DNA of 64,000 nt, taken from positions 704,001 through 768,000 of the forward strand of contig CAWGMQ010000011.1 of NCBI GenBank assembly GCA_963823665.1, in the 5' to 3' direction. The first letter of the stretch is position 1. Each line of letters opens with the position of its first letter. Below are positions 4,585 to 55,575 of the stretch, in pieces. A program made the position numbers and the translations under genes. The stretch comes from an uncultured Planctomycetota bacterium. GTDB taxonomy: Bacteria > Planctomycetota > Planctomycetia > Isosphaerales > Isosphaeraceae. Under the pieces are notes generated by a model. The model was not told the DNA's origin. It made no database searches and worked only from the letters and a program-made list of their open reading frames with translations.

Positions 4585-5977
4585 TCAAGCGACGATTTCC
4601 AGAATAGGGCGGCCCCACGGAACCAGCGCAAACGGGCGCTCGAGTCGGTCGCGAAGCTCGAGGTCGGCAGGTATTCCCAGGCAATGGTAAATCGTCGCGA
4701 TGATTTCGGCAGGAATTACCGGAGAACTGTTGGGCCGTGCCCCGATCTTGTCGCTCGACCCGTGGACGTAGCCGGCCTTCACGCCGCCGCCGATGAGCAT
4801 GAGGCTGTAGCAATAGTTCCAGTGGTCGCGGCCGGCCGCCGCATTGACCTTGGGGCTGCGGCCGAACTCCCCCATGACCACGACCAAAGTGCGTTCAAGC
4901 ATTCCGCGCGAGCAGGTCCTCGATCAGTGTGCCGAGGGCCGCGTCGAGCCCGGGGAGGAGCTCGTTCTTGAGTTTGTTGAAATTGTCGCCGTGCGTATCC
5001 CAGGTGGCGTTGGCGTTGGGCGCCCACGAGATGCAGGCGACCCGCGTGCCGGCCTCGATGAGCCTGCGCGCCAGGAGCGTGCTTTGGCCGTAGATGTTGC
5101 GGCCATAGGAGTCGCGCAGGCGGGGATCCTCGCGGTCGAGTTCGAACGCGCGCCGGGCCTTCGCGGCGGTGAGCAGATCGAACGCACGGGCCTGGAAGCC
5201 GTCCATCTCCTGGAGCCGACGGTCGCGCGCGAGCGCCTCGGCCACATGCCCCACGCCGGCGAGGAGCCGCTTGCGATTGCTGAACCGAGCGAGCCCGACC
5301 CCTTCGGGGAGCCCAAGCTCCGGCATCCCGAAATCCGGCGCGTTGGGGTCGTTGAGTATAAACATGGGGTCGACATTTCGGCCCAGCCAGCCGCCGAAGA
5401 AACCCGGCTGCGGCGGACCGCCGGCCCCTTCGGCCGTGATGTACGGCATCGAAACATAAGGTGGAACCACCGCCCGGGGGGGACGGCAAAGGCTCACGAC
5501 CGAACCCATCGCCGGGTAATCGTTCGGGCCCGTGCCGATCGCCACCGTTGCGTCGCCGCGATCATGACCGGTCAGGCCGACGTAGACGGCCGCTGCGTGC
5601 GCATTGTTCACGCTGTGGTGGACCGACCGGATCAAGGTTGCGTGGTGCATGAACCGCGCCAGGCGGGGCAGGTGCTCGCAGACGGGGACGCCGGGGAAGC
5701 TCGAGTCAATCGGCCTGAACTCTCCGCGGATCTCCGCGGGTGCGTCCGGCTTCATGTCCCACATATCGAGGTGGCTCGGCCCGCCATCGAGGAACAGAAT
5801 GATGCAAGCGTCGGCACGCGGCGTCAGCCCGGTGCCGTTCGGTTGCGCCTCGGCCCGCAGCAGGCGGGGCAGGCTCAACCCCATACATGCCGCGCTCCCC
5901 ACCTGGAGCATCGTGCGGCGCGAGACTCGCGAAGGTCCAGGGCATCGAGGAAAGTCAATCAAGGCTGAACTCCTCAA
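4585..5977 (-). CDS. DUF1501 family protein (Tat-like RR signal); frameshift near 4900
   Basis: SRRTMLQVG, LFLDGGPSHLDMWDMKP, WDTH, GEFGRSPKVN..GRDHW across two ORFs. Confidence 0.9.
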
Positions 5978-8089: not shown

Positions 8090-10992
8090 TCACGGCGCAA
8101 ATGGGTTGGCCGGGAAGCCGCGGTCGAACAGCTCGGCCAGCAGGCGGCGGAAGTCGTCGCGACCGCGCAGTGGGGCGAGGTCGGGATCGCGGCTGGTCTT
8201 GGCGGCATCATTCCACCCGGCGGCGATGGCCTGCTTGAGCGTCTGGACCGCTTGGGCCGCCAAAGCCTGCTGTTGCTCTCCCCGCGCGAGCCGGACGCAG
8301 AGCGCGAGGGCAGCGCCCACGTTGTAAAAGTCGACAGGGTTGTGCTGCGCCAGCGCTGCCAGCTCCCGCGTTGTCTGGATCGCCTCGGCCGGCTGATTCA
8401 GCGCGCCGTGCACTTTCACGAGATTGACCATGTGGGCACGGAGAGCCCGTGGATAGACCGGATGACCGGGCATTGCCTTTAGCGCCGCCCGCTGAGACCC
8501 GATCGCCCGCTCCAGCCGCTCGAGCGCCTGCCTCCATCGGCCCTCGCTCATGTCGAACTCGGCGACATTATTCAGAGCGATGCCCAGACTGCTTTGATAG
8601 GAATGAACCGATGGATGGTCGCGCGCCAGCCGCTCGCAAATCTCCAGGGCCCGCCGGCACCAGTTCAGTGCCTCGGCCGCATGACCCGTGGCGTTCAAGA
8701 CAAAGCTGATGTTCATGCAGTCTTCGGCCAGTTCGCTCTGAAGCTGGGTGACGGAGGGGTTGTCGCGGGCAAGCTGCTCACGAACCTCGAGCGCCTTGCG
8801 GTGCCACTCGAGCGCCTCGGCCGGATCGCCCGCGTTGTACGCCAGGATGCCGATGTTGTAGTGGATCTTGGCGCGGTCGCTCTGGAACGCGATGTCGCCG
8901 GGATGGTCGTGCGCCAGCCGCTCGACTATCTCCAGCGCTTGCCGGCATGACTTCATCGCTTCAGCCGGCTGACCGACCAGGAAAAGCGTCGTGCCGAGGT
9001 TGTCGTAGGTACTCGCCAAATCGCTCTGGTACTCGGTTACGGCGGGATGGTCGCGGGCCAGCCGCTCGCGAATCGTCAGGGCATTCCGGTACGCCTCTAG
9101 CGCCGCCGCCGGATCGCCGGCCATGCGCAGCAGGTTGCCGATGTTGTTGTGGCTGTAGGCAAGATCTCGCTGATAGTTGGCGACCGTGGGATTACCACCA
9201 AAGAGCATCTCGCGGATCGCCAGCGCTCTTCGGTGCGACAAGAGCGCGGCGGCCGGATCGCCCGTGGCGATCAACAGGTTGCCGATGTTGTTGTGGCTTG
9301 CGGCCAGATCGCTCTGGTACTCGCTCTGGGTGGGGTGGTCGCGGGCCAGCCCTTCGAGGATGGCGAGCGCCTCGGTATAGGAGCGAATCGCGTCGGGGAT
9401 GGAGCCAATCTCCGCGGTCGTTCCGGCGAGTTCAAGTTTTGCCCCGGCGAGCCTCGCCAGGGATTCGGCACGGGTGCCGCGGTCGGCCTGGAGCTGATCG
9501 GTAAGCTTGCGGAAGAACTCGAGCGGCTCCCTGAGGAGGGCTTTGCGCAGGGGAGCCAGCTCGAGGTGGTTCTTCAACCCGGCATTGGCCGTGACAGCGT
9601 CGCGGAACTTCTTCACCGCGTCGATGGCCAGCTCCTCGCGCGCAGCGCCAGTTGCCGCTGCCGGCCCAGCTCCCGGTTGTTGGCGACCAGCTCGGCGTTC
9701 TTGCCCGCCAGGACTGTGGCGAAGCCGGCCAGGCCAAGCACGCTTAGAACCAGCACGGCGGCCGTGCTGATTACCAGCGTCCGCCGCCGCCGCAGCCAGC
9801 GCCGCGCCTGAAGCGCGATCGGCTCTGGGTAGGCCGTTACCGGCTCGTCGGCCAGCCACTTGATCATGTCATCGGCCAAGGCGCGCGCCGAGGCATAGCG
9901 GTCAATGGCGCGTGCCGCCAGTGCCTTCAAGCAGATCGCCTCCAGGGCCCGCGACAGCCGCGGATCGCGCTGGCGGGGCGGCACGATCGCCGCGTCACGC
10001 ACCGCGCCAAGCCGGTCGGGGCCGCGCAGGGTCGATTCGTCGAAGGCAGACTTCCCCGTCACAATTGCGTACAGGATCAGGCCCAGGCTGAAAATGTCGC
10101 CGGCGGGGACGGCCGGCTCGCCGCGGGCCTGCTCCGGGCTCATGTATCGTGGCGTGCCCAGGACCTCGCCCGTGGCCGTGATGTCTTCCGGCGACGGGCT
10201 GGGCGACGGGAGCTCGCTGTCCCCCTCGCTCGCTGGCTCGGCCGCGCCGAACGGCTTGGCCAGGCCCCAATCCATCACCAGTGTTTCACCGTAGGGGCCA
10301 AGCATGAGGTTCGACGGCTTCAGATCGCGATGCACGACCCCCTGGTCGTGGGCGTAGGCCACCGTGTTGCAGATCGCGATGAAGTGTTGAAGCAGCGCGC
10401 GGAGCCGCAGGCTCCGGTCGCCGGGATCGGGCGGAAATGGCTCCGGTCTGTGGAAGGCGTTGATCGCCTCCTGGAGCGTCCGGCCCTCGATCAAGGGCAT
10501 GGTGTAAAACGGCCCCCGGTCGTCCTGGCCCAAGCCGTAGATCGGCACGATGCCGGGGTGCTGGAGCCGAGCAGTCAGCACGGCTTCGCGCAGGAACCGC
10601 CGCCGCGCCACCTCGCGCAGCCGGTCGGGACGGATCCGCTTGAGGGCCACGGTGCGGTCGAGCTCTTCCTCGTGAGCGGTGACGACGACCCCCAGCCCAC
10701 CATGGCCATGATGCGAGCGAGGACGATACACCGCCGTGGCGCGCAAGACCTCGGGCAGATCATCAGATTCCCTGGCGGCGCGGCGGGCGCGGTCCGCGGC
10801 CGCTAGATTCGGTTGCCGCACTTCCGTGTCGAGGACCGAGTCGATGGCTTCCAGCGCCTCGATGCGGCGCCGCACCTCCGGTTCCAGCTCCGGGTGGGCG
10901 CAGCACAGCTCCTCGATCGTTGCGGGGGTACCGTGCTCCCGCATCACTTCCCAGCGGTCGACCAGCTCATCGACGTTTGTCTTCGTTTCCAT
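8090..10992 (-). CDS. Ser/Thr protein kinase - TM - 49-aa TPR repeats; frameshift near 9650
   Basis: GHGGLG, VALKRI, HRDLKPSN, DWGLAK, GTPRYMSPE; TM helix; TPRs LAxSHNNIGNLL; end motif DPDLAPLRGRDDFRRLL. Confidence 0.9.
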
Positions 10993-11023
10993 GGGTGCCG
11001 TCACCTCGCGATTCGAGCGATCA

Positions 11024-29271: not shown

Positions 29272-32200
29272 ATGCCGACCACCGATCGAGAAGAAGCTCT
29301 TTTCGCCGCGATTCTGGAAAAACCGACCCGGGCCGAACGCGCGGCCTACCTGGAGGGCGCCTGCGGCGCCGACCACCCGCTGCGGGAACGCATCGAGGCC
29401 CTGCTGGCTGCCCACGACGCCTCGAACGGCGTCCTGGATGCTCCGCCTCCTGTGCCAACCACGACACCCCCTCCCCTCACGGAAAAGCCCGGCACGGTCA
29501 TCGGCCCGTACAAGCTGCTCCAGCAGATCGGCGAGGGGGGCATGGGCGTCGTCTACATGGCCGAGCAGCTCGAGCCAGTCCGCCGCAAGGTCGCACTCAA
29601 GATCATCAAGCCCGGCATGGACAGCCGCCAGGTGATCGCCCGGTTCGAGGCCGAGCGCCAGGCCCTGGCGATGATGGACCACCAGAACATCGCCCGCGTC
29701 CTCGACGCCGCCACAACGGAAAGTGGTCGGCCCTATTTCGTCATGGAGCTGGTCCACGGCGTGCCGATCACCCGGTTCTGCGACGACAACAAGCTGACAA
29801 CCCGCGAGCGGCTGGCGTTGTTCGTGCCCGTCTGCCAGGCGATCCAGCATGCCCACCAGAAGGGCGTCATCCACCGCGACGTCAAGCCGTCCAACGTCCT
29901 GGTGACCATGTACGACGACAAGCCGGTGCCCAAGGTGATCGATTTCGGCGTGGCCAAGGCGATCGAGCAACGACTCACGGAAAAGACGATGTTCACCCAT
30001 TACGGCGCCTTGGTCGGCACCTTCGAGTACATGAGCCCCGAGCAGGCGGAGATGAACGCCTTCGGCGTGGACACGCGCAGCGACATCTACTCGCTTGGCG
30101 TGTTGCTCTACGAGCTCTTGACCGGGACGACGCCGCTGGAGCGCACTCGGCTGCGCGAGGCGGCGCTCGACGAGATGGTGCGGTTGATCCGGGAGGAGGA
30201 AGCGCCGCGGCCGAGCCTCCGGCTCAGTAGCTCGGGCGACCTGCCCAGGATCGCCGCCGCGCGCAAGACCGAGCCGGCGCGGTTGTCGAAGCTCGTCCGT
30301 GGCGATATCGACTGGATCGTGATGAAGTGCCTGGAAAAGGACCGGTCGCGGCGCTACGAGACGGCCAACGGCGTGGCCCGCGATCTGGAGCGCTACCTCG
30401 CGGACGAGCCCGTGGAGGCGTGTCCGCCGAGCTCGAGTTACCGGCTGCGCAAATTTACCCGCAAGCACAAGAAGGCAATCGCGACCACGGCGGCGTTTGC
30501 GGCTCTTTTGGTGGCAGGCGTGGTGATGAGCACGTTGATGGCGGTGTGGGCTAACCGGCAACGGATGGCCTCGGAGGTGGCGAGGCAAGAGGCGAACCAG
30601 CAGCGAAGGGCCGCGGAGGCGGCGAAGCAACAGGCCTTGGATGCCAGAGCTGAGGCAGACAGACAGCGCGACGAGGCACGTCTTACCGCCTATGCGTCCG
30701 GGATGGGGCTGGCCCAGCGTGCCTGGGAAGAGAGTAATGTCGTCCGCGCCCGCGAATTGCTCGAAGAGGTGCCCCGGGAGGCGACTGGCAGAACTCTGCG
30801 TGGGTTCGAGTGGTTCTATCTGTCCCGCTTGTGCCATCCCGACGAGCTGACCCTCTCAGGCCATTCCGGGTTGGTCATGAGCGTGGCGTTCAGCGGGGAC
30901 GGTCAGCGCGTGGCTTCGGGGAGCACGGATCACACCGTGAAGATCTGGGATAGCGCCACCGGCAAGGAGCTATTCGACCTCAAGGGGCATTCTGGTGCGG
31001 TCTGGAGCGTGGCGTTTAGCGGGGATGGCCAGCGCGTGGCTTCGGGGAGCACGGATCAGACGGTGAGGATCTGGGATAGCGCCACTGGCAAGGAGCTCTT
31101 CGCCCTCAAAGGCCATACCGGTGAGGTCCCGAGCGTCGCGTTCAGCCCGGACGGCCAGCGCGTGGCTTCGGCGAGCCGGGACCAGACGGCGAAGATCTGG
31201 GACATCGCCACCGGCAAGGAGCTCTTCGCCCTCAAGGGCCATGTCCATTGGGTTTTGAGCGTGGCGTTCAGTCCTGACGGCCAGCGCCTGGCGTCGACAA
31301 GCTCTGACAAGACGGTGAAGATCTGGGATAGCGCGACCGGCAAGGAGCTGTTCACCCTCGAGGGCGATGCAGTTTGGCTCGGGAGCGTGGCATTCAGCCC
31401 AGACGGCCAGCGTCTTGCGTCGACGGGCCCTGACCCGACGGTGAAGATCTGGGACAGCGCGACCGGCAAGGAGCTATTGGCCCTCAAGGGCCATGCCGGT
31501 AGCGTCACGAGCGTGGCGTTCAGCCCGGACGGCCAGCGCGTGGCTTCGGGGAGCATGGATCAGTCGGTGAGGATCTGGGATAACGCCACGGGCAAGGAGC
31601 TATTCGCCCTCAAAGGCCATGCCGGTTGGGTCAGGAGCGTGGCGTTCTCTCCGGACGGCCAGCGCCTGGCTTCGGGGAGCGATGACCAGACGGTGAAGAT
31701 CTGGGACTGCGCGACCGGCAGGGAGTTCTTCGCCGTCAAGGGCCATCCACGTTGGGTCGCGAGCGTGGCGTTCAGCCCGGATGGCCAGCGCCTGGCGTCG
31801 GCGAGCCACGACCGGACCGTGAAGATCTGGGATTGTGCGACCGGCGATGAGCTGGTCGCCCTCAGGGGCCATGACTCTGATGTCACGAGCGTGGCGTTCA
31901 GCCCGGACGGCCAGCGCCTGGCGTCGGGGAGCTGGGACAAGACGTTGAGGATTTGGGACAGCGCGACCGGCAAGGAGCGGTTCGCCCTCAAGGGCCATGC
32001 CGGCGCGGTTCTTACAGTGGCGTTCAGCCCGGATGGCCAGCGCCTGGCGTCGGGAAGCGAGGACAAGACCGTGAAGATCTGGGATTGCGCGACCGGCAAG
32101 GAGATGTTCCCACTCACGGGCCATGCCGGTTGGGTCGCGTGCGTGGCGTTCAGCCCGGATGGCCAGCGGCTGGCGTCGGCAAGCGGTGACCAGACGGTGA

Positions 32201-33189
32201 AGATCTGGGACAGCGCGACCGGCAAGGAACTATTGGCCCTCAAGGTCCATGCCGGTAGCGTCACCAGCGTGGCGTTCAGCCCGGACGGCCAGCGCCTGGC
32301 GTCGACGAGCCTTGACCAGACGGTGAACATCTGGGACATGGCGACCGGCAAGGAGCTATTTGCCCTCAAGGGCCATGCCGGTTGGGTCAGGAGCGTGGCG
32401 TTCAGCCCGGACGGCCAGCGCCTGGCGTCGGCGGGCATTGATAAGACGGTAAGGATCTGGGACAGCGCCACCGGCAAGGAGCTATCCGCTCTCAAGGGCC
32501 ATGCCGGTGCGGTCGTGACTGTGGCGTTCAGCCCGGATGGCCGGCGCCTGGCATCCGGGAGCCAAGACGGCTCGATCAACCTTTGGGAGACAACGAGCGC
32601 CTCTCGCGAAATCCAGCAACGTCGGGCGACCAATCAAATGGTGGCCGATCTCTTCGGACAGATGCACCTGCGTGCCGACGTCCTGGAGCGGTTGCGAACT
32701 CTGCGCGGCATCAGTCTGTCCCGCAGGCAGAACGTCCTCGACGTCGCCCAGACGTACCCCGAAAATCCAATCCAGCTCAATGAGCTGGCCTGGGAATTGG
32801 TAAGGTTGCCCGGCCGCGACATGCCGGGCTACCAGAAGGCCCTACGCTTCATCGAGGAAGCCTGTCAACTCGAACCCAAGAACGGCTATTACTTGAACAC
32901 GCTGGGCGTGACTTATTATCGGCTCGGCAGTTATGAAAAAGCGCTGGACGCGCTCTCGCGCTCGGACAAGATCAACACTCTCCAAGACAATGGCTCACAC
33001 CCGCTGGACATCGCCTTCCTCGCCATGACGCACCATCAACTCGGCCACGCCACGGAAGCCCAGGCCGAGCTCCAGCGGCTGCGGGAGCGGATGAACGATT
33101 CGCGGTGGGCTCAGAATTCCGGAGCTCAAGGTTTCCTTCGCGAAGCGGAGGCACTGCTTGCAAAACCCAAGCCGCCCGGCAGCGAGTAG
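29272..33189 (+). CDS. Ser/Thr kinase - TM - 14 WD40 repeats - TPR
   Basis: GEGGMG, HRDVKPSN, DFGVAK, YMSPEQ; TM; 14 copies of GH...VAFSPDG...VKIWD; TPR tail. Confidence 0.95.
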   Translation: MPTTDREEALFAAILEKPTRAERAAYLEGACGADHPLRERIEALLAAHDASNGVLDAPPPVPTTTPPPLTEKPGTVIGPYKLLQQIGEGGMGVVYMAEQLEPVRRKVALKIIKPGMDSRQVIARFEAERQALAMMDHQNIARVLDAATTESGRPYFVMELVHGVPITRFCDDNKLTTRERLALFVPVCQAIQHAHQKGVIHRDVKPSNVLVTMYDDKPVPKVIDFGVAKAIEQRLTEKTMFTHYGALVGTFEYMSPEQAEMNAFGVDTRSDIYSLGVLLYELLTGTTPLERTRLREAALDEMVRLIREEEAPRPSLRLSSSGDLPRIAAARKTEPARLSKLVRGDIDWIVMKCLEKDRSRRYETANGVARDLERYLADEPVEACPPSSSYRLRKFTRKHKKAIATTAAFAALLVAGVVMSTLMAVWANRQRMASEVARQEANQQRRAAEAAKQQALDARAEADRQRDEARLTAYASGMGLAQRAWEESNVVRARELLEEVPREATGRTLRGFEWFYLSRLCHPDELTLSGHSGLVMSVAFSGDGQRVASGSTDHTVKIWDSATGKELFDLKGHSGAVWSVAFSGDGQRVASGSTDQTVRIWDSATGKELFALKGHTGEVPSVAFSPDGQRVASASRDQTAKIWDIATGKELFALKGHVHWVLSVAFSPDGQRLASTSSDKTVKIWDSATGKELFTLEGDAVWLGSVAFSPDGQRLASTGPDPTVKIWDSATGKELLALKGHAGSVTSVAFSPDGQRVASGSMDQSVRIWDNATGKELFALKGHAGWVRSVAFSPDGQRLASGSDDQTVKIWDCATGREFFAVKGHPRWVASVAFSPDGQRLASASHDRTVKIWDCATGDELVALRGHDSDVTSVAFSPDGQRLASGSWDKTLRIWDSATGKERFALKGHAGAVLTVAFSPDGQRLASGSEDKTVKIWDCATGKEMFPLTGHAGWVACVAFSPDGQRLASASGDQTVKIWDSATGKELLALKVHAGSVTSVAFSPDGQRLASTSLDQTVNIWDMATGKELFALKGHAGWVRSVAFSPDGQRLASAGIDKTVRIWDSATGKELSALKGHAGAVVTVAFSPDGRRLASGSQDGSINLWETTSASREIQQRRATNQMVADLFGQMHLRADVLERLRTLRGISLSRRQNVLDVAQTYPENPIQLNELAWELVRLPGRDMPGYQKALRFIEEACQLEPKNGYYLNTLGVTYYRLGSYEKALDALSRSDKINTLQDNGSHPLDIAFLAMTHHQLGHATEAQAELQRLRERMNDSRWAQNSGAQGFLREAEALLAKPKPPGSE
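30859..32589 (+). repeat. 14 x 126-bp WD40 tandem array with high internal DNA identity
   Basis: recurring agcgtggcgttcagcccggacggccagcgc and gtgaagatctggga. Confidence 0.9.
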
Positions 33190-38145: not shown

Positions 38146-41030
38146 TCAATGTTTGGCATCGCCCGCTGGAGCTTGCAGCTCTTTGATAATTCGCTGAAAG
38201 TCCGGCTTGGAGCGGATGCCGTCGAGGTCCGGATCGACCTTCAGCCGTTCGACGTCCCGCCACCCGCCCTGGCTGCCGCGTCGAATGGCGGCGATAGCTT
38301 CATCGGCGTAGGTGCGCGCGCGCACGGGATCGAGCTTCTCTGCGGCGCCGGCGCAAATCGCCAGGCCGCACGCGACCTCGACGTACGTCCCGGCCGCATT
38401 CGCCGGCAGACTCTTGATCGTGCTGCGGGCGATTAGAGCAGCCTCGACGTGCTCCCCGCACCGAGCCAGCGCCAGCATCAAATTGATCCGCGCAGTTCGC
38501 GCTTTCGGATCACGGGCCAGCTCCCGGCGCATGTCGCGGCACAGGCGGTACGACTGCATCGACGCGTCGTTCTCGCCGAGCCGAAGCAGCGCCGTCGCGA
38601 GGTAGTAGTGGGCAGTCGCCACGTCGCTGCGGTAGATGGCGCTCTCTGGGTCGCGCGGCAGGAGCGCAGAGAAGCCGTCGACGGCTTTCTGGTAGTAGTT
38701 GCGGGCGGTCTTCGGGTCGTTGAGCTGGAGCAAGGCGATGTGCCCGAAATCCTCGTACGACCGATAGATGTCGCGCAGGTTTGGCACGTTATCCGGCCCG
38801 TCCGCGGCGAGCGCCTGCCGAATCTCGAAAGAGCGTTGGAAGTGCTGGCGTGCCCGGTCAAGATCCCCCTGGCTCAAGCAGATGTGGCCCAGTTTTTCGT
38901 GCAGGCCCGAAAGCTCCCGCCGCACCTCGAAGAGGCTGCGCACCGGCTCGGGGATCGATTCGCGCACCCGCACCTCCTCGTCGAAATACGTTCGGGCCTC
39001 GGCCGTCCGGCCTCGGCGCAGCACGGTCGTGCCCAGCGCCCCAGCGCATTCGCGACACTGCGAAGTCGGCCGCCATCCTCCGGAGCCTTCGCCAGCAGAT
39101 CGCGGTACAGTCGCAGTGACTTCTGGAAGTTGCCCTCGGCCGCCTCCATGTTGCCGAGTGAGTAGAGCTGGTAGTGGCCCAGCGCGCCCTTGCCGATCGC
39201 GAGGGTCAAGAGGAAATTGTCGTCCTCCGCGCCGTATCTGGTCGCCAGGCTTTCCAGGATGCGATCCATCTCGGCGAACGGTTTTGCCGCCTCCGAGACT
39301 CGGCCGATCGAGACCAGCGTCTCGGCTGCCTGCTTGTAGATGCCAGCCATCGCTCGATCGATCACTCGGGTGTTTTTCTCGTCGGCGCGCACTGCCTCAT
39401 ACAGCGGCTTCATCTGCTGAAGCGAGTCTTCCAGGCCCCGCTTGACCTGCTCGAGCAGGCGGAGCTGGACCTGCTCCGTGCCGGGAATGCCCTGCAGGTC
39501 CTCGGACGAAGTCCTGCCAAAGCTGCGCCACGCGTTGATCGTCTCCATGTTCTGGTCCAGTGCCTTGGCGAGGTTGGCACGAGCCTCTTCCGTCTTCTGC
39601 TCTGCAATCTTTCGGGCGGCAAGCGCGGCTTCCTTCTGAGTCTCCGCGACGCCTTGCGCCTCACGGGCGGCGCGCTCAGCGCGCTCAGCGGCGATTCGTC
39701 GTTCATCCGCGACGCGCTTCGCCTCGGATTCACTCGCGAGTGATGAATTCAGGCGCGCGTTCTTGTCGCCCAGAATCCTGGCCGAAATGGCGAGCGTGGC
39801 TATGATGGTGATGAGCAGCAGCATAACCACGGCGATCGCCGCCGCATCGCGCGGGTGCCGCCAGGCCCAGCGCCAGAGGCGTTCGGGGGCCGAGACGGGT
39901 CGCGCCAGAATCGGCGCGCCTTCGAGGAACCGGCGCAGGTCGTCGGCCAGGGCACCGGCGTCGGGATAACGTCGTGCGGGTTCCTTCTGAAGGCACTTCA
40001 GGCAGACGGTTTCAAGGTCGCGGGGAACCTTGGGCTGAAGCTGTGAGGGAGGCAGAGGCTCGCGGTTGCGAACAAGGTCGAGGGTCTCGAACATCGTCGT
40101 CCCCTGGTGAGGGGGGCGGCCGGTGAGCATGACATAAAGGATGGCACCCAGAGAGTAGAGATCGGCGGCCGGCCCCGCCTCGTGAGTCAGGCCGTGCGCC
40201 TGCTCAGGCGCCATGAAACTCGGAGTGCCCAGGATCGAGCCGCTGCGGGTCTGCCCCGAGTCGGTCTCCAGGCGACGGGCCAGGCCGAAGTCGGTGATCT
40301 TCGGCCGGCCGGCGGAGGTCAAGAGCACATTGGCCGGCTTGAGGTCTCGGTGGACGATCCCCCGCGCGTGCGCCGCTTGCATGGCGCGGGCGAGGGCTTC
40401 CGCGATCTCAGCGGCCCACCTCGGGTCCTGCGGCCTGCCGCCCAGCCGCGCGTCGAGCGAGCCGCCGTCGACGTATTCGAGGGAAAAGTAGGGGAGGCTG
40501 TTCGTCTCGCCGATATCGAAGATCTGAATGATGTCGGGATTTTGAAGCGTGGCGACAGCCCGCGCCTCGGTGAGAAATCGCGCCACCTGCTCGGGGCCGG
40601 CATGCGAGCCGGCCAGGATCACCTTGAGCGCGACGATGCGGTTGAGCAGCGTGTGCTCGGCCTTGTAAACCACGCCCATGCCGCCGCGACCAAGTTCGCC
40701 GAGGATGCGATAGTTAGGAATGTTGATATGCCCGAAATCCGGGTCGAATTCCCCAGTCTCCGGATTGCAGGGCAGCGTATCGCGGCCCGATTCAGGGCCT
40801 GCGGCGACGGTCGGCGAGTCCGGATCGAGCTCGGTCTCGGCGCCTGCCGTGACGCCGAGCGTGGCGTCGGGGTCGTTGACGTCAAGTGACGCCTCGCATG
40901 GAGCACCCGTGGCCTCAAGCGCGCGTGCGAAGCCAGTGGTGGCGGCCGGCGAGGGAGACGCCGCGGTCGGGCCCACGGAAGACGGAGCGGCGGTCTCCTT
41001 GTCGTTCGCAAAGTTCTGCGGGTCGTCCAT
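38146..41030 (-). CDS. Ser/Thr kinase - TM - TPR; frameshift near 39035
   Basis: GRGGMG, HRDLKPAN, DFGLAR, FMAPEQ; TM; TPRs; DPDLDGIRSKPDF. Confidence 0.9.
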
Positions 41031-42503: not shown

Positions 42504-44222
42504 TCAGGGCTTTGGTCCTTTGGCACGCTCGAGCAGGGCCTCGACGTCCGTCCACAGCGCCTGCCATTCCTTCCGCTCGGCCTCGGGCAGCTTGGCCAGG
42601 GCAACGGCATCGCGGATGCCAGCGAGGTCGGGGTCGGCCAGCCAGAACCGCAGCCAGCCTTGCACGTCCGCAGACGCAGTGGGCGAGCGGGCCGCCAGGT
42701 GCCTGACCTTGAATGCCAGGTGTTCTCGGAGCCAGCCCAGGGCGAGTCCGCGGCAACGAGCGCGCTCAGCCTCCTCGTTGGGGTGCGTCGTTCCCTCGGC
42801 CACAGCCAGCCAAGGCGGCGGCGCGGGCGGCGTCGTAGCGCCTGCCCGGTTGGACGCCGTCGGCGAGATCCGGATCTGCCGCGTAGGCGTCGACGTAAAG
42901 GCGAACGGCGGCGGCGAAGTACTTGCGATCGAAGCACATCGCAGCCAGTGCCAGCCGCTCGGCGTTATCTTTCGGAGGGTCTTCCCCCTTCAGGACGACG
43001 GTGAGACGCTCCGCCAGCGCCGCCGGCCGTTCGGCGTCGGCCACCCATCGTGCCGAGGCGTGGGGCCAGCCGGGCCCTTTGGTGCCTAGCTCGTGCCCGC
43101 GTCGGATCAGGGCGAGCGATCCGGCGAAGTCGCCTTGAACCCGGAGGATTCCGCCAAGATTGAGGTGGGCCAAGGCGTCGTCGGGCTTCTTCCGGATCGC
43201 CTCGCGGTACGTCGCGGCTTCGAGCGCCTCGCCAGCCTCTTTGGACAATCCTTTGGCCTTGAGCAACCTGCCCAGGCAGCCGAGTATCGTGGCGTAGCTC
43301 GTTGAGCTCGCGGTGGATCGCGATGGACTCGTCAAGTTCGCGCCGCTTCTCAAGCGCGTCGGCCAGCTCGTGAGCGGTTTCGGTCGGCGACGCGGGCGGC
43401 TGCGACCAATGCCGCCGGCCCGTATCCGCCGTCACTGGACCGGTCTTTTCGCATGCGAATCGCCGCCCAGTCGTCCAGCGCCCCGGCCAGCGCCAGTGCC
43501 ACCGCCGGCGAGCGAGCCTTGATATTGGCCCCCACCTCGGCGGGTTTCATATCGCGATGGATCACACCTCGAGTGTGGGCATAGGCCATCGTCTGGGCCA
43601 CGGCCGCGAAGATCGAAAGGAATCGGGGCAGATCCTCGGCCGGTCCCGAACGGGTTGCGAGGAGATTGGCCAGCGTCTGCCCTTTCACCAGCTTCATGCT
43701 GAAAAACGGCCGCTTGTCGGCGAACGTCCCGAGCTCATAGATCGGCACCACGCCGGGGTGCTGCAACTGGCCGCCGATCTGGGCTTCCTCGACAAACCGG
43801 CGGACGAGGTCGCCGTCTTCGCGGAGGTCTTCGCGCAGCACCTTGATCGCGACGTCGCGGCCCAGGTCGGGATCGCGTCCCTTCAGAACGGAGCCCATGC
43901 CGCCGCGCGCGATCTCGCCGTCAATCCGATAGCGAGTCGACGTCTCTTGCCCGTTCAAGGGCCGGATGATCGGCGAAGGCGTCTCACCGATGGCCGTATC
44001 CCGCAGCAGCACGCGCGGCACGTTGCCGAAGGTGGTGTCGAGCATCTCGAGGACGCTCGGGGCGGGAGAAGCATGGAAGGTTGTTTCCGGGCTGTCTTCG
44101 GGAAGATCGCTCCCCGAGTCGCTGCCCATCCCGGCCAGCAACATGCAGCGCGGGCAGAGGCTCTCCGGCGAACGGTAGGGCACTGGTGATCCGCACTTCT
44201 GACAAGTTCGAGGGTCGGCCAT
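42504..44222 (-). pseudogene. decayed Ser/Thr kinase-TPR gene with internal deletion
   Basis: kinase stops at HRDMKPA (no DFG/DWG) and jumps to a later region (ALDDWA); TPR and DPDLAGIRD tail lie in other frames. Confidence 0.8.
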
Positions 44223-49242: not shown

Positions 49243-52200
49243 ATGGCACTCTCCCCGCGCCCACTCAAACAGTACCACGTGTTCCTCGCCTCGCCCGGTG
49301 ATGTCCCGGCGGAACGGCAGCACGTGCGCAAGTTCTTCGACGAATACAACCGCCACACTGCCCACATCTGGAAGGCTCGGTTCGAGGTCATCGACTGGGA
49401 GAACTACGCGACGATCGGCGTCGGCCGTCCGCAGGAGCTGATCACCCAGCAGACCCTGGAAAAGTATCAAGACTCCCTGGCACTGGTCGTGGGCATCATG
49501 GGCCAGCGGTTCGGCTCGCCGAGCGGCAAGGCGGAGTCCGGCACAGAGGAAGAGTTCAACTGGGCGATGGAGAGCCACAAGAAAGACTCTGGCTTTCCGG
49601 AGATCAAGTGGTTCTTCCGCAAGGTGGATAAGCTCGAGCTCCCAGCCGATCCCGACGAGGCCGACGCGGCGCTCGACCAGTGGAAAAAGGTCCGCGCCTT
49701 CCGCAAGCGGATGCAGGATTTGAACGACCCGGTCTTCTACACGGAATACCCAGGCGCCGCCGGCTTCGCCGAGGTGTTCGAGCGCGATCTCAACCAATGG
49801 CTGGCGGATCCGGCACGTCCGTGGGCGGCGGAGCGTGCGGCCTCAGGTGTGCAGCGGACAGCGTGGCCGTCGCACTGCCCGCCGAGTTCGATGCGGAAGG
49901 CTACCAGGCCGCGCTGCTCAAGCGATTCGACAAGCTCAACTTCGAGATGCTCGACACGACCGGCGCGTTCTACAGCGGCGTCCGGCTGTGGAGCGTCTTC
50001 GTCCCGCAGTCGGTGCGGGAATGCCACCAGTACAACCCCCGCCTGCTGGAGATTCCCAAGGAACACCAGGAGCGGCTGCTGAAAGCCGGCGAGATCACCG
50101 CCGCGGAACTGGAGGAAGCCGAGCGGCAGGCCGATCGGCTGCGCCAGGAGTACTTCAGCCAGCCGCTCCGCCCCGTGCTGGACGTCGTCGACGAGGCCCT
50201 CCGGGCAACGTCGTCGCGGGCCGGGCAGAAGCTCGTGATCCTGGGCGACCCGGGTTCCGGCAAGTCGTCGCTGATCCGGTACCTGGCCCTGCGCTGGGCG
50301 CGTATCGCCGAATCGACGGTCCGCGACACTCAACCGATTCCGCTGGTGATCGACCTGCGCGAGTACGGCCGGTGGCAGTGCGAGGGGCGTAAGGGATTCG
50401 TCCGATTCCTGGAAGAAGGCCCGGTCTGGCACGAATGGCGCCGCGGCCTGCTGCCCCGGCTTCTCGCGCAACCCGGTCGCGTGGTGCTGCTGCTCGACGG
50501 GCTGGACGAGGTGTTCGACGTGCAGGCGCGCGAGGCAGTCATCAACGACGTCCAGCGCTTCAGCAGTGAATCCGCCCACACGTCGATCCTGCTGACGTCG
50601 CGCGTCGTGGGCTATCAGCCGCACCGGCTGCGCGACGAAGGGTTCCGTCACTTCATGTTGCAGGACCTGGCCACCGATCAAATCACCGCTTTTGTCGACC
50701 GCTGGCATGCAGAGACCTTCGCCAGCGAGGAGCAAGCGGCGCCGAAAGGCGAGCGGCTGAAAAAAGCCATCAAGGATTCGAAGGCGATCGCCATGCTGGC
50801 CGGCAACCCTCTGCTCCTCACGATGATGGCAATCCTGAACCGCAACCAGGAACTGCCGCGCGATCGGGCCGACCTGTACGCCCAGGCGTCCCGGGTGTTG
50901 CTGCATCAATGGGACACCGAACGGGCGCTGGTGGACTTCCCCGGGCTGCGAGCCGATGTGGGTTTACGCGAAAAGACCGATATCCTGCGCCGCGTGGCCT
51001 TCCACATGCAGTCGGGACCGAGTGGTCTGAAGGGAAACCTGATCGACGGCGCAACGCTTAGCCGCCTGATCGAGGACTATCTGCGTGAAGAGCTGCATTT
51101 CGACCCGGCCCGCGCCGCGGCGCGTGCGGTGGTCGACCACCTGAGGCTGCGCAACTTCATCCTTTGTTTCGTAGGCGCGGACAGCTACGCCTTCGTGCAT
51201 CGCACGTTTCTGGAGTACTTCTGCGCGGCCGAGTTCGTGCACCGGTTCAACGTCACGAAAACTCTGGACATGGACGGACTGATCCAGTTGTTCGACGACC
51301 ACTGCCGCCATGACGAATGGCGCGAGGTCCTGCGGCTGATCTGCGGCCAGATCGACGAATCGTTCGTCGGCAAGATAGTCGAGCACCTGGCCGCGCGGAG
51401 GGTTTCAGAGACCTGGGACGGCGAATCGCCGCGGCCGGAATTGCTGTTGGCGATCGGGTGCTTGAGCGAGGCGCGGAACATCGCACGGCTCGAGGACTTT
51501 GCGCGACTCTCGTCGACGCGCTACTGCGAATTTACATACCTGGGGACGGCGTAAAGGAGTTCCACGACCGGCTCCTCGCTTCGCAGCGGGAAATAGGTAC
51601 CCGATGGCCGGGAGCCGGGGCACTCTGGACGACGGTTCTCAAGCGCGAAAGAGAAATCAATGAAACATGGGCGGCGGTATTCCTGGTCAAGTTTCTGGCA
51701 TGCGTTCGCCCCGAGCGACAACTCGTGGAGCAGCTTCTGGCATCGAAGAATTATTGTCTGCGTTGGAGCGCAATTGAGGCGTTGGCCGAGCACTGGCCCG
51801 ACGAGGCGACCCGCGCCGTGCTGACTCGGCACGCCGTACAGGATGGCGAGTACCCTGTCCGTGGCGCCGCGCTTAAGACGTTGGCCGAGAATTGTCCCGA
51901 TGAGGCGACGCGTTCCCTACTGATGCAGCGTGCGGTGCAGGATGACAACGACGCTCCCCGCCAAACCGCGCTTGAGGCGTTGGCCGCGAAGTGGCCCGAC
52001 GAGACGACGCGTGCGTTGCTGTCGGAGCGGGCTGTGCAGGATGACAACGGCGGTCCCCGCCAAGCCGCGGTTCGGGCGTTGGCCGATAAGTGGCCCGACG
52101 AGACGACGCGTGCGTTGCTGTCGGAGCGTGCGGTGCAGGATGACAACGACGTTCCCCGCCAAGTCGCGCTTGAGGCGTTGGCCGATAAGTGGCCCGACGA

Positions 52201-54085
52201 GACGACGCGTGCGTTGCTGTCGGAGCGTGCGGTGCAGGATGACAACTACGCTCCCCGCCAAGCCGCAGTTCAGGCGTTGGCCGCGAAGTGGCCCGACGAG
52301 ACGACGCGTGCGTTGCTTTTGGAGCGTGCTGTGCAGGATGACAACAACGGTCCCCGCCAAGCTGCGGTTGAGGCGTTGGCCGCGAAGTGGCCCGACGAGA
52401 CGACACGTGCGTTGCTGTCGGAGCGGGCGGTGCAGGATGCCAACTACGATCTCCGCCAAGCGGCGGTTCGGGCCTTGGCCGCGAAGTGGCCCGACGAGAC
52501 GACGCGAGCCCAGTTCGCCAAGTGGACGACCGAGGCGGCAGCGCCCGATGTACGCAGCGCTGCGGTTCAGGCGTTGGCCGCGAAGTGGCCCGACGAGACG
52601 ACGCGTGCGTTGCTGTCGGAGCGGGCTGTGCAGGATGACAACGGCGGTCCCCGCCAAGCCGCGGTTCGGGCGTTGGCCGATAAGTGGCCCGACGAGACGA
52701 CGCGTGCCCTACTGACGCAGCGTGCGGTGCAGGATGACAACTACCCTCCCCGCCGAGCCGCGGTTCAGGCGTTGGCCGATAAGTGGCCCGACGAGACGAC
52801 GCGAGCCCAGTTCGCCAAGTGGACGACCGAGGCGGCAGCGCCCGATGTACGCAGCGCTGCGGTTCAGGCGTTGGCCGCGAAGTGGCCCGACGAGACGACG
52901 CGTGCGTTGCTTTTGGAGCGGGCTGTGCAGGATGACAACTACGCTCCCCGCCAAGCCGCAGTTCGGGCGTTGGCCGAGAAATGGCCCGACGAGACGACGC
53001 GCGCCCTGCTGATGGAGCGTGCCGTGCAGGATGACCACCGCGCTCCCCGCCAAGCTGCGGTTGAGGCGTTGGCCGATAAGTGGCCCGACGAGACGACACG
53101 TGCGTTGCTGTCGGAGCGGGCGGTGCAGGATGCCAACTACGATCTCCGCCAAGCGGCGGTTCGGGCCTTGGCCGCGAAGTGGCCCGACGAGACGACGCGT
53201 GCGTTGCTTTTGGAGCGGGCTGTGCAGGATGACAACTACGCTCCCCGCCAAGCTGCGGTTGAGGCGTTGGCCGCGAAGTGGCCCGACGAGACGACGCGTG
53301 CGTTGCTGTCGGAGCGGGCTGTGCAGGATGACAACAACGGTCCCCGCCAAGCTGCGGTTGAGGCGTTGGCCGCGAAGTGGCCCGACGAGACGACGCGTGC
53401 GTTGCTGTTGGAACGGGCTGTGCAGGATGCCAACTACGATCTCCGCCAAGCGGCGGTTCGGGCCTTGGCCGCGAAGTGGCCCGACGAGACGACGCGAGCC
53501 CAGTTCGCCAAGTGGACGACCGAGGCGGCAGCGCCCGATGTACGCAGCGCTGCGGTTCAGGCGTTGGCCGCGAAGTGGCCCGACGAGACGACGCGTGCGT
53601 TGCTTTTGGAGCGGGCTGTGCAGGATGACAACTACGCTCCCCGCCAAGCCGCAGTTCGGGCGTTGGCCGAGAAATGGCCCGACGAGACGACGCGCGCCCT
53701 GCTGATGGAGCGTGCCGTGCAGGATGACCACCGCGCTCCTCGCCGCGCAGCGCTTGAGGCGTTGGCCGCGAAGTGGCCCGACGAGGCGACTCGCGCCTTG
53801 CTGGCCCAGCGGGTTGTCCAGGATCCGGACGATCAGGTGCGAGGCCTCGCCTTTTCCGCGTTGGCCAGGACCCACTCCCCGATTGGCCGCATCCTGCCGA
53901 CACGAGACTTGGATGGCGTGGGCCCGTATCTCGATCCACTGCAACCGATTCCACTTGACAATATCCGAAAGGCCGCCAAAAGGCTCAGCATCCACCCCGA
54001 CGAAATCGACGCCCAGGTCGCGTCGCTCTCGGCGCACTTGGGTTGGGATATCACCCGCGGCGCGAAGCCATCGGGTAAAGAATAG
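49243..54085 (+). CDS. NLR-like STAND protein: DUF4062-like N-terminus - NACHT - HEAT-like repeats (~1610 aa); frameshifts near 49850 and 51500
   Basis: VFLASPGDVPAER..FGSP..SGTEEEF; Walker A GDPGSGKS; Walker B LLLDGLDE; LTSR; GNPLLL; FVHRTFLEYF; WREV; three overlapping ORFs form one continuous architecture. Confidence 0.85.
51794..53872 (+). repeat. 21 x 99-bp (33-aa) tandem repeat array
   Basis: unit WPDETTRALLxERAVQDDNxxPRQAAVxALAxK; tggcccgacgagacgacgcg recurs every 99 bp. Confidence 0.95.
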
Positions 54086-54209
54086 CTCAGAAGCAATCCT
54101 ACCAGAAAGGAACGCGAACTCGGCGAGTGAGCGCGCGAATCCAACCGGACCGGAACGCAACGGATACGGATCGCACACACCGCCCGCCATGCCCCGCCCC
54201 CAAATCCCA

Positions 54210-54238
54210 TTGAGCTTGGACCACCGCCCCGCTAAGCT
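54210..54238 (+). promoter_or_regulatory. candidate sigma70 promoter TTGAGC-N17-TAAGCT (second copy at 54915-54943)
   Basis: 17-bp spacing; conserved in both duplicated copies. Confidence 0.5.
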
Positions 54239-54276
54239 GACGTGTGTCGCCGTCGCGGCAATGGAGTCCAGCCGCC

Positions 54277-54879
54277 ATGCAAACTCAACTCGTCATGATG
54301 CTGATCCTGGCTTCAACCGCTCAGTTGAAAGCAGACGACAGGCCCCGTCCCGAGCCTCCGCGCGTCTGGCCGGTGACTACCATCCACTTCCGGACCGCTG
54401 GCGAAACTCACGCCCTCACGCTCGAAATGCCACCGCCGGCTGCCGCGGACGCCGAGGACGACGATCCGCCTCCCGCACAGCCGGTCGGGCGTTTCAATTT
54501 GAATACCGCCATGCTGGATCGCGACAACTTCGACCGCTGGCTCTTCCCCCGCGAGCTCTCGGAACGCGCCCGGTACGATCATTTGAAGGAAATCCTCGAT
54601 GCAAGGATCGTTGTCGTGGCCCAGGCGAACAAGCTGACAGACCACGAGCGCGCCAAACTCCGTCTCGCCGGACGCGGAGACATCAAGCGATTCTTTGATG
54701 AAGTCCAGAAGCGGAAGGATCAGTTCGAGATTGACAGAAAGTCTTTCAACACCGGCCTCGCAACCCTGCGCCGCCTCGACGAGCTCTCGCCAACCTACCG
54801 GGACGGCCCCTTCGGCGCTGACTCGCTCTTCGTGAAGATACTTCATAAAATCAGGAACGACCGGCAGACTGGCGGTTAG
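54277..54879 (+). CDS. secreted hypothetical protein, copy 1
   Basis: signal peptide; KLRLAGRGDIKRFFD motif; SD GGAG. Confidence 0.8.
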   Translation: MQTQLVMMLILASTAQLKADDRPRPEPPRVWPVTTIHFRTAGETHALTLEMPPPAAADAEDDDPPPAQPVGRFNLNTAMLDRDNFDRWLFPRELSERARYDHLKEILDARIVVVAQANKLTDHERAKLRLAGRGDIKRFFDEVQKRKDQFEIDRKSFNTGLATLRRLDELSPTYRDGPFGADSLFVKILHKIRNDRQTGG

Positions 54880-54981
54880 CGCCGGCGGTCCCACATTGGC
54901 ACCCCCCAATCTCATTGAGCTTCGACCACCGCCCCGCTAAGCTGACGTGTGTCGCCGTTGCGGCAATGGAGTCCAGCCGCC

Positions 54982-55575
54982 ATGCAAACTCAACTCGTCA
55001 TGATGTTGATCCTGACTTCAACCGCTCAGTTGAGAGCAGACGAGAGGCCCCGTCCCGAGCCTCCACTCGTCTTGCCGGTGACCACCATCCACGTCCGGAC
55101 CGCTGGCGAAACTCACGAGCTCACGCTCGAAATGCCGGCGCCGGACGACGAGGGCGACGATCCGCCTCCCGCACAGCCCGTCGGGCGCTTCAATTGGAAT
55201 ATGGCGATGCTGGATCGCGACAACTTCGACCGCTGGCTGTTCCCACACGAGCAATCGGAAACCGCGCGGCAGGAGCATTTGAGGGACATACTCGACGCCA
55301 AGATCGGTGTCGCAGCTTCGGCGCACAAGCTGACGGATCTAGAGCGCGCCAAGCTCCGTCTCGCCGGACGGGGAGACATCAAGCGATTCTTCGATGAAGT
55401 CCAGAAGAGGAAGGATCAGTTCGAGACCGACAGAAAAAACTTCAATACCGGCCTTGAGGCGCTGCGCCGTCTTGACGCGCTCTCGCCAACCTACCGGGAT
55501 GGTCCCTTCGGCCCTGGCTCGCTCTTCGCCAAGACACTCCACAAGATCGACAACGACCGCAAGACTGGCCGATAG
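54982..55575 (+). CDS. secreted hypothetical protein, copy 2 (tandem duplicate)
   Basis: highly similar to copy 1, including upstream DNA; offset 705 bp. Confidence 0.8.
   Translation: MQTQLVMMLILTSTAQLRADERPRPEPPLVLPVTTIHVRTAGETHELTLEMPAPDDEGDDPPPAQPVGRFNWNMAMLDRDNFDRWLFPHEQSETARQEHLRDILDAKIGVAASAHKLTDLERAKLRLAGRGDIKRFFDEVQKRKDQFETDRKNFNTGLEALRRLDALSPTYRDGPFGPGSLFAKTLHKIDNDRKTGR

Follow-up and report, generated by a model that had tools for sequence, protein, structure and literature searches.

We analysed a 64,000-nt stretch of DNA from an uncultured Planctomycetota bacterium of the Isosphaeraceae (positions 704,001 to 768,000 of contig CAWGMQ010000011.1), hereafter referred to as the window, in which the plus-strand region 49243..54085 holds a gene that, judged by its sequence, is a member of the bacterial NACHT NOD-like receptors (NLRs). 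We consider it fairly probable that this protein has a sensor evolving like the repeats of high internal conservation (HIC) of fungal NLRs, binds a protein trigger and depletes NAD+. The gene has the corresponding architecture, with intact Walker A, Walker B and glutamate motifs and with purifying selection on both the effector and the NACHT; its repeats have homogenised scaffolds and an excess of change at the positions that are varied in the engineered αRep binders, and the length and order of the array differ among relatives. We infer the ligand, the oligomerisation and the NADase activity by analogy, from the families named below.

Gene architecture and effector domain

Once two reading frame breaks are corrected, the region is a single gene of ~1,614 aa that consists of DUF4062, NACHT, a variable helical segment, an array of HEAT-like repeats and a winged helix-turn-helix (wHTH) cap, with its stop codon at 54083-54085. 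The matches to DUF4062, NACHT, HEAT_2 and the C-terminal wHTH-HSP90_Na-assoc were all above their Pfam cut-offs, in agreement with the effector-NACHT-repeat architecture that an initial annotation of this DNA had proposed. This architecture is seen in one polypeptide in intact homologues, and the window gene needs the two frame corrections for it.

The first reading frame piece (49243..49840) contains the N-terminal DUF4062 domain, of a TIR-like NADase family, and a linker. Its match to Pfam PF13271 had 25.8 bits against a gathering cut-off of 24.7 (aa 13-108), and the PADLOC model PDC-S60 matched aa 9-189 with an E-value of 5.8e-28, only over positions 3-169 of the 906 of the model, short of a full-model match. 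The N-terminus was 72-91% identical to 17 homologous N-termini. Precisely, the putative catalytic residue is Glu104 (49552..49554), in the motif S-G-T-E-E-E-F, which was invariant in 18/18 aligned sequences; the motif S-x-T-x-x-E-F was found in 77 of the 83 homologues bearing a DUF4062. According to the passages available from two 2026 preprints, members of the DUF4062 family are TIR-like NADases that have a catalytic Glu and deplete NAD+ when phages infect (bioRxiv 2026.05.01.722283, 2026.06.25.731849). The Glu is E97 in Swarozyc (bioRxiv 2026.05.01.722283) and E87 in Eva01 (2026.06.25.731849), and NADase activity is also described for human TEP1, whose architecture is DUF4062-NACHT-WD40 (bioRxiv 2026.05.01.722283, 2026.06.25.731849). 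Both preprints support the TIR-like effector of the initial annotation. By motif and position we infer that Glu104 is the equivalent of these two residues, and the effector is a probable NAD-destroying enzyme. A structure model of the DUF4062 domain had a predicted local distance difference test (pLDDT) score of 67, with strands alternating with helices. A sequence search of PDB with the DUF4062 profile yielded no relatives (the single match had an E-value of 0.14), and NCBIfam gave partial matches alone, far below the cut-off.

The NACHT module (49872..51470; NACHT match of 43.6 bits), with its nucleotide-binding domain, helical domain 1, winged-helix domain and helical domain 2, has both the Walker A motif GDPGSGKS (50244..50267) and a Walker B motif, DGLDE (50496..50510), of the D[GAS]hDE type described by Kibby et al. 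as the NACHT signature. It is followed by the variable segment (51470..51793), by the array (51794..53872) of 21 HEAT_2/αRep-type units of 33 aa, namely an N-cap, 16 main-type inner units, three divergent units and a C-cap, and by the wHTH-HSP90_Na-assoc domain (PF24410, 53888..54007; 27.3 bits against a cut-off of 23).

Homologues were searched for in the length range 959-2735 aa, with 2707 matches at E<=1e-20 among 8000 scored, and we analysed the best 120. In these proteins, of 959-1434 aa, the NACHT is joined to the downstream parts in one protein; Walker A was found in 120/120, DGLDE in 117/120 and the DUF4062 N-terminus in 83/120, the other 37 having Pfam NNH2 in its place. Other parts are occasionally exchanged or added as well: in P0080 a PNP/MTA-SAH nucleosidase replaces the repeat array at the C-terminus, P0101 has a RimI-like acetyltransferase at its end, and P0102 a long extra N-terminal part with PF13749. 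At L042:9957-11001 the usual wHTH cap is missing after the array, and a different C-terminus follows after a frame change.

Units of the array and their variable patch

All 21 units are exactly 33 aa apart (Tandem Repeats Finder: period 99, 19.8 copies, score 2239), and positions 20-21 read, letter by letter as previously annotated, YP,DA,GG,DV,YA,NG,YD,PD,GG,YP,PD,YA,RA,YD,YA,NG,YD,PD,YA,RA,DQ; the variation noted at positions 11, 28 and 32 is also present. The array has 16 distinct unit sequences, with DNA-identical sets 3=9, 7=14, 8=11=18 and 12=19. Exact blocks recur, one of 266 nt seven units later and one of 185 nt ten units later, which points to growth of the array by block duplication together with exchange of single units. 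The scaffold had been described as almost invariant in DNA; this stands as long as one compares the inner units of the main type, 16 in number (mean pairwise identity 0.83 in aa), and fails for all 21 (0.70 in aa, 78% in DNA); the threshold for HIC repeats in the literature is a Psim >= 0.7 by T-REKS, a metric different from ours.

The units with PD at positions 20-21, which are units 8 (52487..52585), 11 (52784..52882, opening the 266-nt block) and 18 (53477..53575), turned out not to be mere di-residue variants: they are one identical, divergent type with a Trp at unit position 13 (W13), 32-41 of 99 bases away from the other units. Related units were found in L041, L042, L056 and several homologous proteins, with a planctomycete, a gammaproteobacterium and an alphaproteobacterium among the hosts, and we therefore consider this unit type as old.

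The array matched PF13646 (HEAT_2) with 240 bits, and 5/5 PDB sequence matches of the repeats (E<=1) were αRep proteins, positions 20/21 of the window being aligned to αRep positions 18/19; the unit length is 33 aa and not the 31 of the αRep consensus. These matches confirm the annotation of the repeats as HEAT-like rather than TALE. As a structure model we used an AlphaFold2 (AF2) model of homologue P0002 (101-row alignment). With a pLDDT of 86, it has two helices per unit, helix 2 starting from unit position 20, and it matched αRep chains with VIA Z scores of 14.8 (root-mean-square deviation, rmsd, 4.6 over 170 aligned residues) and 14.1. Its NACHT matched NLRC4 (Z 20.7, rmsd 6.3, 437 aligned) and NOD2 (E 4.4e-09), with NLRP3 also a top match.

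In the parts of the αRep literature that we used, the variable positions of these binders are 18, 19, 22, 23, 26 and 30 (PMC3754942), helix 2 lies on the concave face, and 18/19 make most contacts to the folded target in αRep-GFP crystals (PMC4613692). We fixed the six corresponding positions (20, 21, 24, 25, 28 and 32 here) beforehand from PMC3754942 and compared them with all 1,107,568 six-position sets: they were in the top 0.04% for family entropy and in the top 0.07% for within-array mismatch in 25 arrays. Among 659 distinct units taken from the 120 homologues, entropy was highest at positions 20 and 21 (3.5 and 3.7 bits). Within the 25 high-identity arrays the mismatch was 0.42, 0.60, 0.63, 0.70 and 0.46 at positions 18-22, 0.60 at 24, 0.39 at 28, 0.31 at 32 and 0.28 at 11; position 25 varies little. 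Hence the variable site is not the di-residue of the initial annotation, since a patch of positions 18-22, 24, 28 and 32, plus 11, varies. By homology, the variable residues other than position 11 would share one solenoid face, a concave binding face like that of αRep, an assignment made from aligned positions. In L059-L061 (cyanobacteria and one unassigned record), with 44-47% NACHT identity, the units are of 34 aa and the same patch is variable; the DNA identity is 0.82-0.95 among the three units detected in each.

TAL effectors have two-helix units of 33-35 aa, with high internal identity and two adjacent variable residues. A TALE-like or PPR-like code has to be weighed, in which each unit would read one element of a linear polymer, either a nucleic acid or an extended peptide, via its di-residue, and the target would be spelled by the order of the units. 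Its points of support are the strict 33-aa phase of 21 units, the fact that the two most variable residues are neighbours and adjoin an invariant Arg, and the reuse of units in new orders. On the other side, no TAL-effector family was found among the five Pfam matches (E<=0.1) and the five PDB matches (E<=1), and fold and context are those of a HEAT_2/αRep array in an NLR. The array is net acidic (116 D+E vs 95 K+R), which argues against DNA binding. Moreover, the small di-residue alphabet of TAL effectors was not found, there being 181 di-residues in the 659 units; about eight positions co-vary, many homologues carry 1-4 units, and αRep surfaces, in the structures described in the sources at hand, bind folded patches. 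For these reasons the code in repeat order put forward previously finds no support, and we regard such a reading as very improbable. A related scheme, a self-rewriting library of binders on a death switch, seems to us quite improbable too. In it variation would have two tiers, the exchangeable segment and an array with units in register, each unit reading one element of an extended or periodic target (a peptide chain or a repeating structure of a phage), so that the order of the units would program the trigger.

Selection and recombination in the array

For the proportions of nonsynonymous (pN) and synonymous (pS) differences within the window array we used a simple counting method on the 13 distinct main-type units (78 non-independent pairs). 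The pN was 0.455 at positions 20/21, 0.327 at the six αRep positions and 0.049 at the other 27, with a pS of 0.217; the pN/pS was 2.74 at 20/21 against 0.20 on the scaffold, in line with the excess of amino-acid change suspected at the variable sites. In codons 20 and 21 of these units the third bases are fixed (pS 0), with changes at first and second bases only. The pN/pS at 20/21 was > 1 in 14/15 homologue arrays, the fifteenth being saturated. The synonymous distance is lower within the window array (pS 0.22) than to 15 other arrays (0.38-0.78), which indicates concerted evolution.

As the initial annotation had recommended, repeat strings were compared among homologues, and both order and number of units differ among relatives. 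The 120 proteins have from 0 to 17 detected units, so that the 21 of the window are above all of them, and many full-length homologues have just 1-4. Among ten clusters at 90% identity, five differ in unit number, one has a rewritten nine-unit array and four are unchanged. Alleles with 849-850 of 850 pre-array residues identical have 2, 3, 3, 3 and 4 units, and two other near-identical allele pairs have 8 vs 9 units and, via a three-unit block, 8 vs 11. None of 61 pairs with at least 90% NACHT identity share a di-residue string, a biased count, as the database was clustered at 90%.

Diversification by a diversity-generating retroelement (DGR) was considered and rejected: the N-N-C (20) and N-N-T (21) codons resemble the outcome of adenine mutagenesis, but a DNA search of the 92%-complete genome for a template repeat gave only the array itself, matches of 65-78% in the two paralogues on contig C4 and short chance matches. 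A protein search of the genome for silent donor cassettes gave the two C4 paralogues and three weak matches at two loci. As a separate observation, the genome has 22 matches to the reverse transcriptase family RVT_1, on contigs C3, C5, C6, C7, C8 and C11 and none in the window, many of them in identical multi-copy sets and seven, each in a frame of 634 aa, with identical scores; the shorter matches at C7:317740 (381 aa) and C5:1037129 (329 aa) could be of DGR or retron types, and one match lies ~2.3 kb from another NACHT gene at C8:616080.

A second variable segment

The previous picture, with specificity in the repeats only, was incomplete, since it missed a second, non-repetitive variable segment ahead of the array. 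This segment of ~110 aa (51470..51793), helical by prediction, is the most variable stretch of the family, with a column entropy of 2.3-3.0 bits vs 0.4-1.6 in the NACHT. Its identity is 29-53% between homologues that are 74-83% identical in the NACHT, and grouping 75 segments at 50% identity gave 42 types. The window segment is 70-71% identical to those of P0007 and P0011 and 60% to that of L049, as against 20-34% to those of the seven closest NACHT relatives listed. On a quick NACHT tree of 28 rows the seven sharers of the segment need 6 changes, vs a mean of 6.4 after shuffling, and on a second quick tree (16 rows, LG+G4) the approximately unbiased (AU) test rejects a clade that unites the window with P0007, P0011 and L049 (p 1.6e-101), and likewise one that unites it with P0007 alone (p 0.004). 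The segment does not track the NACHT tree either because of exchange by recombination or because of long retention with repeated replacement; it appears to be exchanged between family members, and we propose it as a second candidate specificity determinant.

This raises an alternative in which specificity would lie mainly in the segment, together with the cap units. The array would then serve for spacing or avidity and drift in length through recombination, and the variation at its patch would be tolerated, or would escape homogenisation because of the mismatches there. No other part of the protein is as divergent as the segment, which moves without regard to the NACHT, there are full-length homologues with 1-2 detected units, the pS at 20/21 is raised in the pooled homologues (0.48 and 0.39 vs 0.20), and the 21 units far exceed the 1-7 internal modules of the selected αRep binders given in the available part of PMC3754942. 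Neutral divergence, however, does not predict the fixed third bases at codons 20/21, and the overlap of the variable positions with the αRep binding face is much greater than chance would give; we thus judge this alternative to be rather unlikely, and keep to a sensor formed by array and segment together.

Integrity of the reading frame

Aligned with intact homologues, the window gene runs through three frames one after another and changes frame near 49840-49860 and again near 51495-51515; these are the two frameshifts reported previously. The first (49840..49865) lies in the linker, where the window is short by one base modulo 3: all five listed contig pieces of relatives spanning the site (~88-93% alike) are longer by 1 modulo 3. 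At the second (51495..51515) the window is short by one base; a 200-nt contig (run X1) covers 51358-51556, which is 199 bases of the window, and differs from it by a single mismatch and a single gap (99.5% identical), and homologue L049 reads through the site with similar sequence on either side. The check on reads that had been recommended thus yielded the extra base at the second site from a nearly identical contig, and at the first site from contigs of relatives only. No premature stops were found in the homologous frames of the window gene, and the ratio of nonsynonymous to synonymous substitution rates (dN/dS) against three homologues was 0.09-0.19 for the effector, 0.18-0.22 for the NACHT and 0.27-0.37 for the C-terminal part. 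Because of the extra base in the 99.5%-identical contig, of the intact relatives and of these dN/dS values, an assembly error is probably the cause of both frameshifts.

The source assembly has 16.46 Mb in 12 contigs and is 91.9% complete. Other window genes are split into overlapping or abutting ORFs, namely a DUF1501 gene (4588-5977) and kinase-TPR genes (8093-11004, 38149-41030 and 42769-44222), which suggests frequent single-base errors, or decay, in the assembly. The genome also has two paralogous DUF4062-NACHT-HEAT genes ~10 kb apart, at C4:810623-814604 (-) [L019] and C4:824774-828041 (-) [L020], with NACHTs 70% identical to that of the window gene and with 12 and 5 units of low internal identity (0.56 and 0.64 in DNA), respectively; both are frameshifted in the assembly.

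It may be argued that the frameshifts are real and that the copy of this strain is a recent pseudogene or a reservoir of repeats, which would be compatible with the receptor mechanisms considered here. Two breaks are present in this gene and breaks occur in both C4 paralogues too, and no reads of this very strain cover the first site. Against this stand the additional base of the contig across the second site, the homologous frames free of premature stops with their low dN/dS, the fact that the C4 paralogues are broken at places other than those of the window gene, and the splitting of unrelated window genes, a pattern that single-base errors would leave in an assembly of 16.5 Mb and 12 contigs. 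On balance, a pseudogene in this strain is improbable.

Distribution and genomic neighbourhood

Relatives were found in 25 of 43 candidate stretches of genome contigs, 19 of them at 69-85% identity, in hosts belonging to Planctomycetota, Acidobacteriota, several proteobacterial groups, Desulfobacterota and Verrucomicrobiota. The nearest named homologues are in Isosphaeraceae. In 40 related genomes (one of the same genus, 84% complete) this query gave no close matches, with distant NACHTs at 22-39% identity only. No conserved partner gene was found among 109 of the 173 called ORFs at 16 loci (pieces of the NLRs and distal ORFs were omitted), nor, despite the name of PF24410, any Hsp90 partner at these loci. 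A scan for promoters and terminators upstream of the gene gave 0 sites, and a search of sequencing runs found no run with half of the words of the gene and listed no RNA run.

Who supplies the trigger bears on a further alternative, namely that the same receptor responds to something other than a phage, such as a guarded host protein, a toxin delivered by a competitor or, in a planctomycete with a large genome, a marker of kin and non-kin, comparable to allorecognition by fungal HET-E/HET-D. The best-studied receptors with such an evolutionary pattern act in allorecognition, according to the available part of PMC13449251, the neighbourhoods consist mostly of ordinary genes, and one bacterial NACHT protein is reported to sense phage via the host DnaJ. 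Yet the bacterial DUF4062 and NACHT proteins tested in the accessible parts of the published work are antiphage (for NACHT, Kibby et al., bioRxiv 2022.07.19.500537), the N-terminus matches the PADLOC candidate PDC-S60, and the gene has no conserved partner and a patchy distribution across phyla. A non-phage trigger is unlikely in our opinion, and a phage protein is retained as the preferred one.

Among the other genes of the surroundings, a tandem duplication directly downstream of the NLR (54197-55575, 705-nt spacing, copies 85-91% identical) encodes a ~210-aa protein with an apparent signal peptide (by eye) and no Pfam match, the first copy having no NCBIfam match either. At 29272-33186 an ECF sigma factor precedes a protein of 1305 aa that has 14 WD40 matches, and its WD40 array (30859-32552) is internally conserved as well, with a 126-bp period, 13.4 copies and 80% matches; further window genes are of DUF1501, DUF1559 and ECF-kinase types. 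At other loci, three family members have, less than 10 kb away, genes of CHAT (caspase-like) proteases that also carry TPR or TIR/AAA domains: L020:15325-18945 (-), L044:10164-13472 (-) and L056:444-2834 (-).

Proposed mechanism and comparison with known systems

In the mechanism that we favour the stacked units would form a curved solenoid. Its concave face (helix 2 with positions 20, 21, 24, 25, 28 and 32, plus the loop residues 18-19 and 22) and the variable segment adjoining the NACHT would jointly bind the surface of a folded foreign protein, most likely of a phage. Binding would release autoinhibition, the NACHT would oligomerise and the DUF4062 domains would cluster; once clustered, they would destroy NAD+, and the infected cell would arrest or die. 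New specificities would arise by unequal recombination and conversion among near-identical units, by point mutation under selection at the patch, and by exchange of the pre-array segment between genes. Specificity would then be a composite surface over a few neighbouring units and not a code of one unit for one base.

Several observations weigh against this proposal. In the assembly the gene is frameshifted twice, and the evidence from this strain is a single contig of low depth, which covers just the second site. The DUF4062 model alone matched generic flavodoxin/Rossmann folds, the first TIR chain (TIR-STING) being at rank 37 with Z 7.3. The pairwise pN/pS values are non-independent and ignore recombination; the raised pS at 20/21 in the pooled homologues means that part of the signal consists of old patches swapped whole, and in L046, L051, L052 and L055 the within-array pS is not the lowest. 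The differences in copy number among near-identical alleles (nested cases) could be due to assembly collapse, both paralogues of this genome and several homologues carry low-identity arrays, and the variable position 11 sits in helix 1, off the αRep face. Finally, the window gene has no adjacent defence gene, and at only 7-8 of 16 homologous loci is there a neighbouring gene of the defence, toxin-antitoxin or transposase kind (WYL/Cas1, HNH/AAA_21, HepT, MqsA, TIR-CHAT with MNT-HEPN, IS110, DDE, DUF4143), a count with no background control.

The parallel with fungal NWD-type receptors drawn in the initial annotation is borne out by layout, conserved repeats and hypervariable positions. The fungal HIC NLRs (HET-E/HET-D/HNWD of Podospora, and ANK/TPR NLRs) share the effector-NACHT-repeat layout, the near-identical repeats with few hypervariable concave positions, and probably also the gain, loss and shuffling of units. 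In the passages available, the hypervariability of concave positions in HIC repeats is well established for fungi (Dyrka et al. 2014, PMC4986451), and HIC NLRs have already been reported in bacteria for WD, TPR, ANK and LRR repeats (Ament-Velasquez & Saupe 2026, PMC13449251; Dyrka 2020 preprint), the relevant section of the cross-domain survey (PMC13449251) covering ANK, TPR, WD40 and LRR only. The window gene differs from the fungal ones in being bacterial, in its 33-aa HEAT_2/αRep units, in its DUF4062 effector and in the extra exchangeable segment.

With the bNACHT of "antigen-receptor type" of Kibby et al. it shares the NACHT with the D[GAS]hDE Walker B, the C-terminal HEAT repeats, an N-terminal NAD-targeting effector that is swapped within the family, the single-gene format and the patchy spread; the bNACHT passages that we had (bioRxiv 2022.07.19.500537) mention neither DUF4062, nor internal conservation of the repeats, nor selection on HEAT units. 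Swarozyc and Evangelion have the same N-terminal DUF4062 with the conserved Glu motif, combined with a short auxiliary domain and no NACHT. The DUF4062 with its Glu motif is also shared by animal TEP1, NWD1, NWD2 and NPHP3, and the order DUF4062-NACHT-repeat by TEP1, NWD1 and NWD2; their sensors are WD40 or TPR. The αRep binders (PDB 3LTJ, 4JW2, 6FSQ) belong to the same HEAT-like subfamily and, in the sources as far as available, their libraries vary in unit number, but their units have 31 aa and were engineered from a consensus, whereas the window units, of 33 aa, are natural, fused to an NLR and diversified by recombination and selection, with positions 18, 19, 22 and 11 also variable and 25 varying little.

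A literature search found no description of hypervariable HEAT arrays in bacterial NLRs, although supplements, e.g. Table S1 of Kibby et al., may list them; PMC13581612 with its supplements, in the portions available, does not mention DUF4062 or HEAT sensors, and neither did the available portion of the supplement of PMC13174449 give a match. What seems to be new is the HEAT-type HIC NLR with a pre-array segment that is apparently exchanged; bacterial HIC NLRs of other repeat types and NACHT-HEAT bNACHTs are known.

Diversification by shuffling was predicted from work on fungi for those bacterial NLRs whose repeats are near-identical; in the parts available, this work covers WD40, TPR and ANK with no bacterial site-level test. 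The present family makes such a test tractable, since one gene suffices, its output can be scored as NAD+ loss or cell death, and many natural alleles differ in the sensor alone; the αRep proteins are an engineered twin, with solved complexes that point to the binding residues. The family also links the newly characterised DUF4062 NADase to a bacterial NLR switch, the domains being ordered as in human TEP1/NWD1/NWD2. Should it prove possible to graft selected αRep-type units, this would open a route to custom intracellular sensors in laboratory bacteria, and reading in register, if true, would amount to a programmable protein-sensing kill switch with a readable code.

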